NCBI GenBank assembly: GCA_964012565.1
Contig: CAXGTB010000001.1
Coordinates: forward strand, 1-34,744
Source: an uncultured euryarchaeote
Lineage (GTDB): Archaea > Thermoplasmatota > Poseidoniia > Poseidoniales > Poseidoniaceae
Direction: 5' to 3'
Length of the DNA: 34,744 bases
Part shown: positions 21,078-30,075 of the stretch, one piece after another
Numbering within the stretch: the first letter of the stretch is position 1
Layout of the letters: each line of letters begins with the position of its first letter
The notes under the pieces: model-generated
Database searches by the model: none
Told to the model about the DNA's origin: nothing
Seen by the model: only the letters and a program-made list of their open reading frames with translations
Made by a program: the position numbers and the translations under genes

Positions 21078-22343
21078 TCACTGAACAGACATAAAACCTG
21101 ATCGGTCATAACCCCATGGTATGGTTGCATCGATACCAATTTTTGCGGTATTTCCGTCATTAAGTCGTGACGGATCGAGGCTAGAACCCTTTTGATTTGA
21201 GAGAATGATTGAGTCTGTATCAGGTTGCCATCTTGTCATCATTGCCCATTCAACTCTAACAGGGTCGGTAATGTCAATATCTTCGTCAACTATTGTTACC
21301 ATCTTCATCGAGCGATGACCATCTAAAGCAGCTTGAATTGCTCTTTTTCCATCACCCTCTTTCTTCACTTTGATTTTGACTACTGCTGCAAGCCAGCCAC
21401 CGCCCCCTTCAGTCATGTGAACATCTAGACATTCACAGACTTCACTAACTGCAGATTTGATTGTTGGTGCCCTAGGTAAACCCATCAGGGTTTTGTGTTC
21501 TGCCTCTGCAGGGATTAATGCGTGAAAAATCGGGTTTGAACGATGGGTAATTCCATCGATTTCTATTACTGGCTCCTGGCGAATGTCATCGACAGTTCCT
21601 GTAATATCCACATATGGGCCTTCATCGTCATTTTCTGTAGTAACTCTTCCCCACATGGCGTATTCAGCATTTGCAGGGACTTGAATTCCGTTTGGTAATG
21701 TCACTAATTCCAAGGGACTGCCATGCACTTTTTCATGAAGTGCCGAAGCGATAGTTAATTCGTCAATATTTGTATCAAATGACATTGCTGCAGCCAGTAA
21801 AACGACTGGATCAGGGGCGTTAATTATTGCTACTTTTACTGAATCCCCTACAGATCTTGCCTCTTTTGTCATCGAATGTAGATGGCGAGGAACAATTCTA
21901 GCCACGAGATGATTATCATCTCTGAGTAGTTGTCTATGAAATGACATGTTTCTGATACCACCATATTCGGCAATAATTACGCTAGATGACATATATCTTC
22001 CACGATCTTCTCTCCAGTGATGAGGAATTGGCAATTTGGTCAATTCGGGTTTATTTTGGACATTTTCTAGGACCGGCCCAAATTCCACAATTTTTGGTTC
22101 TCTTGGATTTTCCATGGCCCACCCGAGTAGGTCAATAAAGTCCTCCGGCTCAATAGATAATGCTGCACATAATCGCGGCCTAGTAAGTAGATTAACTGCG
22201 ATTTTATGACCAGGTGTCTCAACAAGGTTTTCGAATACCAACAAGTCATGTCCTGTCGACTTGGACTTGTCAAAAACCCCATGCAGTATGCTTGTTGGCT
22301 CGTCTATAATTGAAGCCGCACCTAGCAGATCACGGAATGCCAT
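21078..22343 (-). CDS. UbiD-family (prenyl-FMN dependent) decarboxylase; candidate anhydromevalonate-phosphate decarboxylase
   Basis: About 420 aa with overall UbiD-like organisation: MAFRDLL... N-terminus, EYGGIRNMSFHRQ, VDITGTVD and GGGGWLAAVVKI segments. Start set to ATG 22343. The specific substrate is inference. Confidence 0.65.
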   Translation of the reverse strand: MAFRDLLGAASIIDEPTSILHGVFDKSKSTGHDLLVFENLVETPGHKIAVNLLTRPRLCAALSIEPEDFIDLLGWAMENPREPKIVEFGPVLENVQNKPELTKLPIPHHWREDRGRYMSSSVIIAEYGGIRNMSFHRQLLRDDNHLVARIVPRHLHSMTKEARSVGDSVKVAIINAPDPVVLLAAAMSFDTNIDELTIASALHEKVHGSPLELVTLPNGIQVPANAEYAMWGRVTTENDDEGPYVDITGTVDDIRQEPVIEIDGITHRSNPIFHALIPAEAEHKTLMGLPRAPTIKSAVSEVCECLDVHMTEGGGGWLAAVVKIKVKKEGDGKRAIQAALDGHRSMKMVTIVDEDIDITDPVRVEWAMMTRWQPDTDSIILSNQKGSSLDPSRLNDGNTAKIGIDATIPWGYDRSGFMSVQ

Positions 22344-22483
22344 TGCGCCTTCCTGTAGGATTAAAGCCAAGAACATTGGCCTATACTTTTGGCTGTGAGT
22401 GCATCATTTGATGGATACTTTTCAATCGGCATCATGAAATAGGGGGGGTAGGTCGGCAAGTTGCTTCTCTGGAGAGTTTAGAT

Positions 22484-23626: not shown

Positions 23627-24775
23627 ATGAGTGAGGAGCCACCATACCGAATTAACTGGTTAAATTCTGTGTTCTTAATTGTGACACCAATCTTGGCGAT
23701 AGCAGGAATTATCGGCCACTGGTCTTATTTTGGGCATCCTGGTCTAATTGAATTTTTTGTATTCCTATCGTTTTATTACGCCTGTGGATTGTCAATAACT
23801 GTAGGATATCACAGATTATTCTCACATCGTTCGCACAAAGCTAAATGGCCCCTAGTCCTATTTTACTCGTTTTTCGGAGCGGGTTCGTTTCAAAATTCGA
23901 TACTAGAATGGAGTTCAGATCATAGAAGACATCACAAAATGACCGATTCGGATGAAGACCCATACAGTGCCTCGAAGGGTTTCTGGTATTCCCACATGGG
24001 ATGGATATTGATTGAGGAAGAGAAGTTCGCAAATGATTTTTCAAATGTGAAAGACCTGCAGCAAAGCAAAATAATAATGTGGCAACACAGAAATATTTTC
24101 CTTATAGGTGCTATTTCTGGCTTCCTTTTACCCGCTTTAATTGGATTTCTTTTCGGAGGTATTTCTGCGGCAATAGGTTGTTTCGTCTGGGGTGGACTTG
24201 CAAGAATTGTATTCGTACATCACGGGACATTCTTGATCAATAGTGCTGCTCACATTTGGGGAACTCAACCATATTCTGAAAAGGATTCAAGCCGCGATTC
24301 ATTCTGGTTAGCATTCTTAACGTTCGGTGAAGGATATCATAACTTCCACCACACATTCCAAACCGACTACAGAAATGGACACAAGTGGTACCATGTCGAC
24401 CCTAGCAAATGGTGGATTAAATTATTCAACTATGCGGGATTAAACACAAGGCTGAAATCCACACCAAAGCATTCTATTGAAGTAGCCAAGGTAAATATGC
24501 GCTTCAAAAAGTCTGCAAAGAAATTGAAGGCGAAAAACATCAGCACCAACTCATTCGAATCAAGGTTGACAAATTGCAGAGACAAACTAAGATCATGCCT
24601 TTATGAAATTCAAAAGGCGAAAAGGGAATTGAAGAGTAAAGCCTCTAAGTCGAAAGAGGCAATCAAGATTCGAATAAATGAAATGAAGATTTCTAGTAAG
24701 AAAATTAGAAACGATTTAAGGCAAATATTCAGAGAAATGAAATTTGAATACAAGTCTGCCAAGACGGCTGTATAA
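23627..24775 (+). CDS. Membrane Delta-9 fatty-acid (acyl-CoA/acyl-lipid) desaturase with Lys-rich helical C-terminal extension
   Basis: Three His boxes in Delta-9 (SCD/DesC) context: GYHRLFSH, HRRHHKMTDSDEDPYS, and NSAAHIWGTQPY...GEGYHNFHHTFQTDY. Hydrophobic hairpins flank them. The last ~100 aa are K/R/E-rich. Confidence 0.85.
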   Translation: MSEEPPYRINWLNSVFLIVTPILAIAGIIGHWSYFGHPGLIEFFVFLSFYYACGLSITVGYHRLFSHRSHKAKWPLVLFYSFFGAGSFQNSILEWSSDHRRHHKMTDSDEDPYSASKGFWYSHMGWILIEEEKFANDFSNVKDLQQSKIIMWQHRNIFLIGAISGFLLPALIGFLFGGISAAIGCFVWGGLARIVFVHHGTFLINSAAHIWGTQPYSEKDSSRDSFWLAFLTFGEGYHNFHHTFQTDYRNGHKWYHVDPSKWWIKLFNYAGLNTRLKSTPKHSIEVAKVNMRFKKSAKKLKAKNISTNSFESRLTNCRDKLRSCLYEIQKAKRELKSKASKSKEAIKIRINEMKISSKKIRNDLRQIFREMKFEYKSAKTAV

Positions 24776-27078: not shown

Positions 27079-27114
27079 ATCAAATGATTTAATTTGCCGC
27101 AAGAAGGGAAATTT

Positions 27115-27546
27115 ATGGGTAGATTGTTGGGGATTTTTTCCTCCAATGGTGGAGTTCCCAAACTTCCAATAGAATCCGCACAAATTGACTCTAACGGAAT
27201 AATTGGTGACAGTTGTAACAATAAGAAGCACCATGGCGGGCCTATGAAGGCAATTTGTGTTTTGGAGAACGAACTTCTAGTAAAATTACAATCTGAAGGT
27301 CATCCAATCCAAGCTGGCTCAACTGGAGAAAATATCCTGGTTGAGGATTATAATTTGGAAGTTGGAAAGGTGTTTGATGTAGGTGAAGTTAGGCTCGAGG
27401 TTGTGTCTGATGCAACACCTTGTTGGAAAATCGCAGATTCATTTACAGAAGGAGAATATCACCGAATGTCAAATGAAAAACATCCCGGTGACACCAGATG
27501 GTATTGCAGGGTATTGAAAGAGGGCTCAATCAGAATATCCGATTGA
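27115..27546 (+). CDS. MOSC-domain protein
   Basis: HHGGPMKAICVLE...GSTGENILVE...VRLEVVSDATPCWKI, with the conserved MOSC Cys context. ATG 27115 is preferred over TTG 27094. Confidence 0.65.
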   Translation: MGRLLGIFSSNGGVPKLPIESAQIDSNGIIGDSCNNKKHHGGPMKAICVLENELLVKLQSEGHPIQAGSTGENILVEDYNLEVGKVFDVGEVRLEVVSDATPCWKIADSFTEGEYHRMSNEKHPGDTRWYCRVLKEGSIRISD

Positions 27547-29260
27547 GTTGGTAATCTGTTAACTCTCGCAATGCTCTTAGTGCTGGGCTTTCAACCAAAC
27601 GATCTAAGCAATCATGTGCTTTTCTATGATACGCCTCTGCCTTAGACTTAGCATATTCAATTGAACCTAAATCATGTAATGCTTGATGTCCTAGAGCAAC
27701 TTGCTCTGCAGTCACATTTTCACCTTTACCTAGCACAGCGAGTAAATCATCCTTTGATTGTGAAGAAGGCTGTCTTAGGGCATGAATTACCATAAGAGTT
27801 CTTTTTCCTTGAGCCACATCACTTCCACTAGGTTTTCCAAGTGTATCTGTATCTGACATCACGTCAATTATATCGTCCATTAACTGGAAACACAACCCTA
27901 GGGCTAGTCCCCAATCATGCATGCATTGAATTATTTCTTTGTCAGCTCCAGCAAGATGTGAACCAACCTCTGCACAAGTAAGGAACATTGCTGCAGTTTT
28001 ACCATGAATCATCTCAGTATATTCTTCTTCTGAAACTACTTCTCTAGATTCAAATTCGATATCTAACTGTTGACCTTCACTACACTTCCTAACCATTCTA
28101 CCAATTCTTTTCACCAAGAATGGAAGGAGCGCAGGTTCAATCCCCTCTGCAACTGCCATTGCCTCAAACGCAATTGCTAGCATTGCATCACCGGCATTAA
28201 TTGCTGTAGGCAAATCATAGGCCTTGTGAACTGCTGGGCGACCACGACGTACATCATCATCATCCATAATATCGTCATGAACTAAAGTAAAGTTGTGAAT
28301 AATTTCAATAGCAGCACCTACATCTAAAAGTCCTGAATGGGTATCTCCAACAGCTTTAGCCACTAACCATGGTAGTGTCGCACGTAGTCTCTTCCCTCCA
28401 CCTTCCAGTAGATGCATCATCGCACCAGATAATCGGTCTAGTTTTGTGTGAGTTAGAGCACGTTCAATTCTCTGTTCCACCAAATCTTTGACTTCACCAA
28501 TGCTAATTTCCAATCCTGCACCTTTTGCTGATGGAAGTAAATGTGAGACATCACCCATATCGTGAATCAGATCATCAGGCTTTGTACATCCAGGTCTCCA
28601 CCAGTCATCGGTCATTATTCGAGCCGCTATACATCTAAACCAAGGAGCAATGATGTTGTTGTCATCATCGGCAACAAGCATTTCTTCTAACTCATCTTTA
28701 GAAACCCACTTGATTTCTTCTACCTCGTTTGCATTTGGATTTACGTCCACATCAACATGGATGACTAAACAGTGATCGATCTCTCTCTCAATCCACTCCT
28801 CATCTTGTCGAGCTTGGTATCTCATTTTTGTAACAAAATCAAACTTTTCAATCGGGACTTGCGATGGGTGTATTCCTAATTCTTGTTCGAGTTTCCTTAT
28901 TGCCGCTCTTTTTACACCAAGTGCATCTTTCAATTCTAGTTCATCTTCAGAATATAGGGGGTGAGAGCAACATGAATTTGCCCAAACACCTGGGAAAGTA
29001 ATCTTGTGTGATGCTCTTTTTTGAAGCAATAAGCGACCTGATAAATCAAACAGAAGGACACTAAAGGCACGATGATATTTGCCTTCACCATAGTGACTAT
29101 TGAACTTGGAAATCGGACCAATAACCTCGTCGTTTTCTTCAACTTGAATCACGGCTTCAGACATTAGTGATTCTTGTATTGAATCCGAACCTTCCAGAGC
29201 GTGAGATGCATCCGAGTCCATTTGTATGGTTGGAACATCCTCTATCCCATATCCAGTCAT
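27530..29260 (-). CDS. Fusion protein: type-1 isopentenyl-diphosphate isomerase (Nudix) + short-chain trans-prenyl diphosphate (GGPP-type) synthase
   Basis: N-terminal half: YHRAFSVLLFD...LLLQKRASHKITFPGVWANSCCSHP...REIDHCLV...EVEEIKWVS (IDI1). C-terminal half: FARM LVHDDIMDDDDVRRGRP with Phe at -5, and SARM FQLMDDIIDV. It is a single uninterrupted frame. The ORF opens at GTG 29275; ATG 29260 is preceded by GGTGAG. Confidence 0.85.
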   Translation of the reverse strand: MTGYGIEDVPTIQMDSDASHALEGSDSIQESLMSEAVIQVEENDEVIGPISKFNSHYGEGKYHRAFSVLLFDLSGRLLLQKRASHKITFPGVWANSCCSHPLYSEDELELKDALGVKRAAIRKLEQELGIHPSQVPIEKFDFVTKMRYQARQDEEWIEREIDHCLVIHVDVDVNPNANEVEEIKWVSKDELEEMLVADDDNNIIAPWFRCIAARIMTDDWWRPGCTKPDDLIHDMGDVSHLLPSAKGAGLEISIGEVKDLVEQRIERALTHTKLDRLSGAMMHLLEGGGKRLRATLPWLVAKAVGDTHSGLLDVGAAIEIIHNFTLVHDDIMDDDDVRRGRPAVHKAYDLPTAINAGDAMLAIAFEAMAVAEGIEPALLPFLVKRIGRMVRKCSEGQQLDIEFESREVVSEEEYTEMIHGKTAAMFLTCAEVGSHLAGADKEIIQCMHDWGLALGLCFQLMDDIIDVMSDTDTLGKPSGSDVAQGKRTLMVIHALRQPSSQSKDDLLAVLGKGENVTAEQVALGHQALHDLGSIEYAKSKAEAYHRKAHDCLDRLVESPALRALRELTDYQLNRIF

Positions 29261-29295
29261 AGACTCACCATGCACTCGGTTTCGCGCCGACTACA

Positions 29296-30075
29296 TCAAC
29301 AGTTCCCTGCAATTATTCGAGTTCCAATGACTGATTTTCCTTCGATTGCAGCTAAAATACGATCATATTTCTCACCATTAACAAGTAATACATCGATACC
29401 TTGTTCAGCAATCATTGCGCCTCTTGACGCTTTGAGACCAATTCCTCCGGTTACATCAATTTCCGATGCATGCTCACCTTCAAACTCGAGGCCAGGGTGC
29501 CAGACATCAATCAAATCCTCTGGTTTTGCTTTATTTGGAGGAACTCGTAAAATTCCATCGACACCTCCTATTGCAAAGATTGCTCGCTCTACATTAGAGA
29601 TTTCAGTAGAGTACCTCAACATTATATCATCACCAGATAAAATTCCAAATTCTTTGTCATCATCATCGACCACATCTCCATACACAACAGTTACGCCGTT
29701 GTGTAGTGGCAAATTACCTGCGAATTGAGGACCTGTCCCTTTCGCCCATTCATGCGGTGGGAATGACTGAACATCCAATCCATGCGATCTTAATGCTGAA
29801 ACAACAATCTGGTTCAATTTAAGCATGTCATCTCTGACTTCTTTCACTGCTGAATCTTGATCTAACCCCTCGATTCGACCATCTGCAAGTCGATGTTTTT
29901 TGGCCTTCATATGTCCAAATGATCCTGCACCGTGAATGATTACTAGATTCTTGGATGTGTTTGAACAAATCTTAGCGAGAGAATCGATTACATCTTGATT
30001 TGCTGTACAAAGTTTGTCTTTGTGTGTAATTAGCCCGCCACCCCACTTGATGACGACGGTTCCGACCATGCACAT
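29296..30075 (-). CDS. ipk: Isopentenyl phosphate kinase
   Basis: Amino-acid-kinase fold with IPK motifs VIKWGGGLITHKD and IIHGAGSFGH. The stop is 35 nt upstream of the IDI-GGPPS start on the same strand. An alternative ATG lies at 30069. Confidence 0.8.
   Translation of the reverse strand: MCMVGTVVIKWGGGLITHKDKLCTANQDVIDSLAKICSNTSKNLVIIHGAGSFGHMKAKKHRLADGRIEGLDQDSAVKEVRDDMLKLNQIVVSALRSHGLDVQSFPPHEWAKGTGPQFAGNLPLHNGVTVVYGDVVDDDDKEFGILSGDDIMLRYSTEISNVERAIFAIGGVDGILRVPPNKAKPEDLIDVWHPGLEFEGEHASEIDVTGGIGLKASRGAMIAEQGIDVLLVNGEKYDRILAAIEGKSVIGTRIIAGNC

Follow-up and report, generated by a model that had tools for sequence, protein, structure and literature searches.

A conserved single-gene fusion of type-1 isopentenyl diphosphate isomerase and a short-chain prenyl diphosphate synthase in Poseidoniales

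The DNA analysed here, hereafter the window, is a stretch of 34,744 nucleotides (positions 1 to 34,744 of contig CAXGTB010000001.1, assembly GCA_964012565.1) from an uncultured euryarchaeote of the family Poseidoniaceae, and it carries on its minus strand two consecutive genes assigned to isoprenoid synthesis (Table 1). The first encodes isopentenyl phosphate kinase (IPK), and the second is a single open frame in which a type-1 isopentenyl diphosphate (IPP) isomerase, IDI1, precedes a short-chain prenyl diphosphate synthase of the archaeal geranylgeranyl diphosphate (GGPP) synthase (GGPPS) or IdsA type. An initial annotation, made from the sequence letters without database searches, had placed the kinase 35 nt upstream of the fusion. 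The kinase frame indeed scores 159 bits on NF040647 against a curated equivalog cut-off of 120, and the ATG of the fusion gene lies exactly 35 nt past the kinase stop (29296), with GGTGA just 5' of it. The same annotation held that one frame combines a type-1 isomerase with a short-chain prenyl synthase, which is upheld by curated family scores, structure matches and residue conservation alike.

The fusion frame runs from a GTG to its stop codon as 581 amino acids (27530-29275, minus strand) with no internal stops, and it spans 586 amino acids from stop to stop in this genome. Because two congeners have a stop codon at residue 5 and the commonest homologue length is 576 amino acids, the start is assigned to the ATG at 29258-29260; residue numbers given here follow the 581-residue frame from the GTG at 29275, not the 576-residue product. 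In-frame stops in some relatives were considered as gene breaks and rejected, as they fall at residue 5, upstream of the true ATG. A terminator scan of the spacer between the kinase and fusion genes found no terminator-like site, and the two genes are likely co-transcribed.

Family models, structure matches and conserved residues support the identification of the N-terminal half as a type-1 IPP isomerase. The Pfam NUDIX domain covers residues 66-204, and two curated equivalog models are exceeded, TIGR02150 (IPP_isom_1) at 154.6 bits against a cut-off of 105.8 and NF002995 at 137.9 bits against 127. Human IDI1 (2dho) aligns with this half over about 196 residues (E = 3.7e-51, 177 bits), whereas E. 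coli Idi reaches about 53 bits; identity of the two halves to the solved structures of human IDI1 and archaeal GGPP synthase is about 40-45%. The NSCCSHP motif occupies residues 100-106 (28958-28978) and EREID residues 163-167, and residues 104-135 form the IDI-type Nudix box S-x7-E-x14-RKLEQELGI, which agrees with S-x7-E-x14-R[RK]LxxExGI as given for human IDI1 (PMC5389931); a motif scan of the isomerase half found no hydrolase-type Nudix box. Across 17 genera, H61, H68, C103, H105, E132, Y153, E163, E165 and W212 are invariant, and the catalytic cysteine and glutamate, the His/His/His/Glu/Glu metal site, the tyrosine and the tryptophan can all be aligned with human IDI1. The individual roles, with C103 and E165 as catalytic residues and H61, H68, H105, E132 and E163 as metal ligands, are presumed to be those of the E. 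coli and human enzymes.

Nudix hydrolases that act on prenyl diphosphates exist, and a Pfam NUDIX match would also suit a domain that hydrolyses diphosphates or serves as a regulatory sensor of a ligand. Such a function for the N-terminal domain is very improbable, given the two equivalog cut-offs passed, the presence of the IDI-type box in place of a hydrolase box, the invariance of all IDI1 catalytic and metal residues, and the fact that searches of these genomes, whose mevalonate route needs an IDI, found no second one. Isomerase activity is thus the function predicted for the domain. It resembles human IDI1 (2dho, 2icj) in its catalytic Cys and Glu, its metal ligands, its long IDI box and its membership of the same long clade, and differs from it in forming the N-terminal domain of a two-enzyme archaeal protein.

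The C-terminal half matches Pfam polyprenyl_synt (PF00348) over residues 282-520 at 221.7 bits against a cut-off of 27, and GGPP synthase structures align with it over its full length (5jfq, E = 2.5e-58; 1wy0, E = 3e-54). Its first aspartate-rich motif (FARM), DDIMD, lies at residues 334-338 (28262-28276), contains no insertion and is preceded at position -5 by an invariant phenylalanine, Phe329, and the second (SARM), an invariant DDIID, lies at residues 467-471 (27863-27877). These motifs, like NSCCSHP in the isomerase, stand as first annotated. The FARM context HNFTLVHDDIMD (FTLVH-DDIMD) is the same as in the GGPP synthase 5jfq, and the residues invariant among the 17 genera in this half include K295, R298, F329, D334, D335, D338, R343, R344, K426, D467, D468, D471, K481 and K491. 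In the chain-length literature, a bulky aromatic residue at -5 before the first aspartate-rich motif is the rule for archaeal type-I GGPP synthases, and a C20 product would be expected from the synthase half. The likeness to archaeal type-I GGPP synthase and IdsA (5jfq, 1wy0) thus extends to full-length alignment, FARM context and the aromatic residue, whereas the Poseidoniales synthase sits behind an isomerase and scores below the NCBIfam equivalog cut-offs.

A junction alignment shows that stand-alone isomerases end at fusion residues 237-246 (IHDMGDVSHL) and that stand-alone synthases start about a dozen residues further on. The linker between them falls inside the junction range (about 28500-28620) singled out for checking in the initial annotation, and in fused proteins it is short, differs between proteins in both length and sequence, and keeps the frame every time. 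AlphaFold confidence (predicted local distance difference test, pLDDT) drops below 50 for residues 247-263, and the linker is predicted to be disordered.

Table 1. Features of the isoprenoid locus and of related loci discussed in the text, with positions in the window unless a locus label is given
Feature	Position	Strand	Basis
IPK, isopentenyl phosphate kinase, 259 aa	29296..30075	(-)	NF040647 IPPK_Arch, Pfam AA_kinase
Spacer of 35 nt, IPK stop to fusion ATG	29261..29295	(-)	GGTGA ribosome-binding-like motif; sequence read
IDI1::GGPPS fusion gene, 576 aa from ATG	27530..29260	(-)	Single open frame
Type-1 (Nudix-fold) IPP isomerase domain, residues 42-216	28628..29152	(-)	TIGR02150, NF002995, human IDI1 match
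Junction/linker, residues 247-258 (LPSAKGAGLEIS)	28502..28537	(-)	Junction alignment, AlphaFold pLDDT
Short-chain trans-prenyl diphosphate synthase domain, archaeal GGPPS/IdsA type, residues 262-579	27539..28492	(-)	PF00348, 5jfq, 1wy0
UbiD-family decarboxylase (context), candidate anhydromevalonate-phosphate decarboxylase	21078..22376	(-)	Pfam UbiD + UbiD_C
Patescibacteria IDI1::IdsA-like fusion	L055:2998-4542, L056:2740-4326, L057:2197-3777, L058:2938-4542, L065:2926-4536		

The window belongs to a fragmented metagenome-assembled genome of 272 contigs that is 87% complete, a setting in which a single frame might arise from an assembly or sequencing error merging two genes. A protein search returned hundreds of homologues of 565-581 amino acids at 83-98% identity, on independent contigs from ENA, JGI, Tara and NCBI; the sources that give them a name call them after one half only and assign them to Poseidoniales. 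Among 301 genomes of the class, nearly all members of two Poseidoniales families, the window's own (f1) and a second one (f3), contain a full-length match at 50-90% identity, and in a separate sample of these families IDI1 lies within an open frame of more than 500 amino acids in 52 of 52 other IDI1-positive genomes. The gene order was compared at one locus from each of 20 further genera of the two families. All 20 have the fused frame and, immediately upstream of it, IPK; elongation factor EF-2 is found on the opposite side of the fusion in 18, often with a MOSC gene in between, and Tpt1 lies beyond IPK in 10. Since hundreds of assemblies from different sources share the fusion, closed or near-closed genomes are among the fused genera, and the frame is always kept while the linker sequence varies, an artefact is practically excluded as an explanation. 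The fusion is real and conserved across Poseidoniales.

Conservation is also evident at the level of residues and substitution rates. Across the 17 genus representatives, 155 residues are invariant, including all IDI1 catalytic and metal residues and both aspartate-rich motifs. Within the window's genus, the nonsynonymous substitution rate (dN) ranges over 0.09-0.13 in the isomerase half and over 0.05-0.10 in the synthase half, with synonymous sites saturated; in comparisons that allow an estimate of the synonymous rate (dS), dN/dS has a median of about 0.03 in each half, which indicates that both are under selection.

The remark that a type-1 enzyme is itself notable here proves well founded. 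IDI1 scores above its cut-off in 35 of 35, 17 of 18 and 8 of 8 sampled genomes of three Poseidoniia families, against 3 of 189 other sampled Thermoplasmatota. The type-2 enzyme, IDI2, was not found in the window's genome, nor in any of the 61, 39 and 19 genomes examined from the three IDI1-bearing families (each at least 85% complete), and the fused domain is the only isomerase found in the fused lineages. Some f3 genomes carry a second IDI1-like Nudix gene (G035:C34:4053-4538, G030:C14:33555-34019, G031:C18:32457-32927), which has about 30% identity to the fused domain and scores under the IDI1 cut-off.

The archaeal mevalonate pathway ends in isopentenyl phosphate, and the gene set of this genome fits such a route. 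An AcnX-type phosphomevalonate dehydratase and a geranylgeranylglyceryl phosphate (GGGP) synthase are present, and no MDD-family decarboxylase was found in the 87% of the genome that is covered. The UbiD-family gene of the window is a candidate for supplying isopentenyl phosphate to IPK, a role adopted from the published archaeal mevalonate pathway. The AcnX-type match (G000:C18:2622-3824, L136) lies in an open frame of 608 amino acids, compared with a model of 400 positions, and the large and small AcnX subunits may be fused in this frame. The sole other prenyl synthase of the genome (G000:C7:7739-8677, L002) carries, ahead of DDIND, Ala at -5 and Ser at -4, a pattern of medium- and long-chain enzymes; it scores nearly equally on short-chain and heptaprenyl/solanesyl models and is probably a longer-chain enzyme. 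Since this second synthase is long-chain-like, no short-chain synthase other than the fused protein was found; since IDI2 was not found, the fused domain is likewise the only IDI found for a mevalonate route that needs one.

The origin of the fusion can be approached through relatives in which the two genes remain separate. In three genera of a family of the same class taken to be Marine Group III (f4), and in three genomes of g19, a Marine Group IIa genus of the window's own family (loci L012:803-2472, L013 and L044), idi1 and ggpps are separate, adjacent and overlapping genes in the same order, and the split pair of g19 still lies between IPK and EF-2. These pairs are orthologous to the two halves of the fusion and share their order, with g19 also sharing the IPK and EF-2 neighbours; they differ from the fusion in being two overlapping genes with a stop codon at the site of the linker. 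Loss of a stop codon in an overlapping idi1-ggpps pair would explain the fusion. In the GGPPS tree, g19 is nested inside its family with moderate support, whereas a concatenated tree yields a polytomy in which a single clade of all fused sequences is not rejected (approximately unbiased (AU) test, p = 0.53); the gene trees are compatible with either an ancestral or a reverted split in g19.

Sister families indicate what may have preceded IDI1 at this position. In f2 (locus L014:1492-3595), a 369-amino-acid FMN-type IDI2 immediately precedes a stand-alone GGPPS and is flanked by an IPK fragment and EF-2, and in f5 (G062:C3:77288-79431) an IDI2 above its cut-off lies about 240 nt upstream of GGPPS. 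Because these families carry IDI2 where the others carry IDI1, a replacement in place is suggested, with IDI1 taking over the position of IDI2 in an IPK-IDI-GGPPS gene string.

In the literature consulted, archaeal IDI1 is reported for Haloarchaea and Thaumarchaeota only and is ascribed to transfer from bacteria (PMC3533463). In an IDI1 tree with narrow bacterial sampling and no Thaumarchaeota or Haloarchaea, the Poseidoniia sequences group with those of eukaryotes, namely human, Albugo, Seison and stramenopile IDI-squalene synthase fusions. A split with support of 100/100 sets this clade of long IDI1 apart from the short type seen in bacteria, DPANN archaea and Patescibacteria; within the long clade, the tree does not resolve the order of archaeal and eukaryotic sequences. 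Both the tree and the similarity scores given above support the initial description of the isomerase half as eukaryote-like, to which no donor is assigned.

Taken together, these data make it probable that the fusion gene encodes a natural bifunctional enzyme with IDI1 and GGPPS activities. In the mechanism proposed, IPK, whose gene lies upstream and is probably co-transcribed, would convert isopentenyl phosphate to IPP. The metal-dependent N-terminal domain would turn part of this IPP into dimethylallyl diphosphate (DMAPP) through protonation and deprotonation involving Cys103 and Glu165. Subsequently, the C-terminal domain, using Mg bound by its two aspartate-rich motifs, would add three IPP units to DMAPP to give a C20 compound (GGPP, perhaps accompanied by some C15), which GGGP synthase would lead into ether lipids. 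With the domains arranged end to end on a short flexible linker, the two enzymes would occur in a fixed 1:1 ratio and the source of DMAPP would sit beside its consumer. As to the order of events, IDI1 would first have replaced IDI2 in the gene string, after which the stop between idi1 and ggpps would have been lost in Poseidoniales.

Several points weigh against this interpretation. The synthase half reaches 289.2 bits on IdsA_Meth (NF040698) against a cut-off of 468 and 258.2 bits on GGPP_syn (NF041003) against 500; reaching the curated cut-off of no NCBIfam equivalog, it is filed under the broader family of GGPPS/IdsA-type short-chain synthases, and product length is consequently assigned from the phenylalanine at -5 and from the resemblance to 5jfq and 1wy0. 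For the full-length protein, a shallow alignment gave a weak AlphaFold2 model (mean pLDDT 68; predicted template modelling score, pTM, 0.49), which predicts a disordered linker and N-terminus and says nothing on domain orientation. Finally, the pathway does not require the fusion, since g19 and Marine Group III have the two enzymes encoded by separate genes.

The family scores also bear on which product is made. The chain length of a prenyl synthase is set by few residues, and the C-terminal half, whose best NCBIfam match is IdsA, could be a bifunctional farnesyl diphosphate (FPP)/GGPP synthase of the IdsA kind or an enzyme with another product length. This possibility is rather unlikely in light of the invariant Phe329, the FARM context identical to that of 5jfq, and a GGGP synthase that needs GGPP in a genome whose only other prenyl synthase is long-chain-like. 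A GGPP-forming synthase domain accordingly remains the preferred assignment, as predicted from these residues.

Whether joining the two enzymes brings any advantage is a separate matter, for which fusions in other organisms are informative. An exhaustive architecture search of 1.84 billion cluster representatives returned two representatives of the Poseidoniales fusion and three more distant proteins of the same architecture. Two of the distant matches, P0222 and P0252, represent a family encoded in five Patescibacteria genomes as single open frames of 515-537 amino acids, the hosts being labelled Saccharibacteria, Nealsonbacteria, Paceibacterales and others. These proteins share the Pfam architecture and domain order of the Poseidoniales fusion, but have only about 30% identity to it and contain an isomerase of the short bacterial/DPANN type, from the other major IDI1 clade; owing to this short-type isomerase, the Patescibacteria fusion is regarded as independent. 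At the related DPANN/Patescibacteria loci L059-L063, the match is not covered by one continuous open frame and the halves are not fused. The third distant match, P0132, a eukaryote-like fusion of IDI with a type-III GGPPS, was not counted, since it is known from one metagenome contig of 4 kb only and is possibly a gene-calling artefact; its halves match a stramenopile IDI-squalene synthase protein and stand-alone GGPPS proteins, respectively. Long-type IDI1 was also seen joined to DUF6962 in P0179 (468 amino acids) and, in P0265 (343 amino acids), to a sorting domain of type-IX secretion (CHU_C); each lies on one short contig, and both may be artefacts.

Two further systems offer points of comparison. 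The IDI-squalene synthase fusion of stramenopiles, discussed for diatoms (e.g. PMC12168105, PMC6330534) and exemplified here by P0163 and P0228 from Cafeteria, is likewise natural and places a long IDI1 N-terminal to a later isoprenoid enzyme, whereas its partner is squalene synthase (PF00494), two steps later in the pathway, and its host is a eukaryote. The engineered IDI-(GGGGS)2-GGPPS fusion, which raised the yield of a GGPP-dependent product in yeast (PMC6786277), has the domain order of the Poseidoniales protein and was built expressly to place the isomerase near GGPP synthase; it differs in its artificial linker and in being man-made from parts of two organisms.

The fusion could also be a neutral accident, a stop loss that was retained without kinetic advantage. 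The ancestral genes overlap, so that a single small change would suffice to fuse them; the linker is short, variable and disordered; split lineages persist; and the gene trees do not separate an ancestral from a reverted state in g19. Against this stand the fused state of nearly all sampled genomes of two families despite about 50% sequence divergence, the independent fusion with the same domain order in Patescibacteria, and the gain in GGPP supply from engineered fusions (PMC6786277). Neutral retention is thus the less favoured reading, although it deserves more weight than the other alternatives, and a kinetic benefit of the fused arrangement may be proposed. A bolder scenario, in which the protein acts as a channelling machine that converts IPP to GGPP without release of DMAPP, and in which a eukaryote-type IDI1 was laterally exchanged between marine eukaryotes and Poseidoniia, displaced IDI2 in situ and was then welded to GGPPS, is doubtful as a whole.

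Other genes of the window complete the picture of the locus. A MOSC-domain gene (27094-27546, plus strand) is convergent with the fusion gene, and the 3' ends of the two overlap by 17 nt; it occupies the fusion-adjacent position in some genera only. A gene of the fatty-acid desaturase family (Pfam FA_desaturase; 23627-24775, plus strand) lies between the genes for ribosomal protein S7 and EF-2.

A full-text literature search, with subscription journals outside its coverage, found no description of a natural archaeal IDI1-GGPPS fusion and returned engineered ones only. The protein is apparently an uncharacterised natural bifunctional enzyme composed of two textbook families. With both parts known from textbooks, and with the protein already present in public databases under the names of its halves, the gain is incremental. 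The aspects new here are the occurrence of IDI2 in the corresponding position of sister families, the separate genes of Marine Group III and g19, the standing of the fused protein as the only IDI and only short-chain synthase found, the independent fusion in Patescibacteria, and the assignment of the isomerase to the long clade of eukaryote type.

The window comes from a member of Marine Group II, a group that ranks with the most abundant archaea in surface ocean waters; as its members are uncultured, their lipid synthesis is known from genomes alone. A single protein that combines the sole isomerase with the sole short-chain prenyl synthase found would provide a simple handle on their whole supply of lipid precursors, and it offers a ready-made natural counterpart of a fusion built by metabolic engineers. 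Furthermore, the series from IDI2 and GGPPS through IDI1 and GGPPS to IDI1::GGPPS, within one conserved gene neighbourhood, would represent a clean example of replacement followed by fusion.

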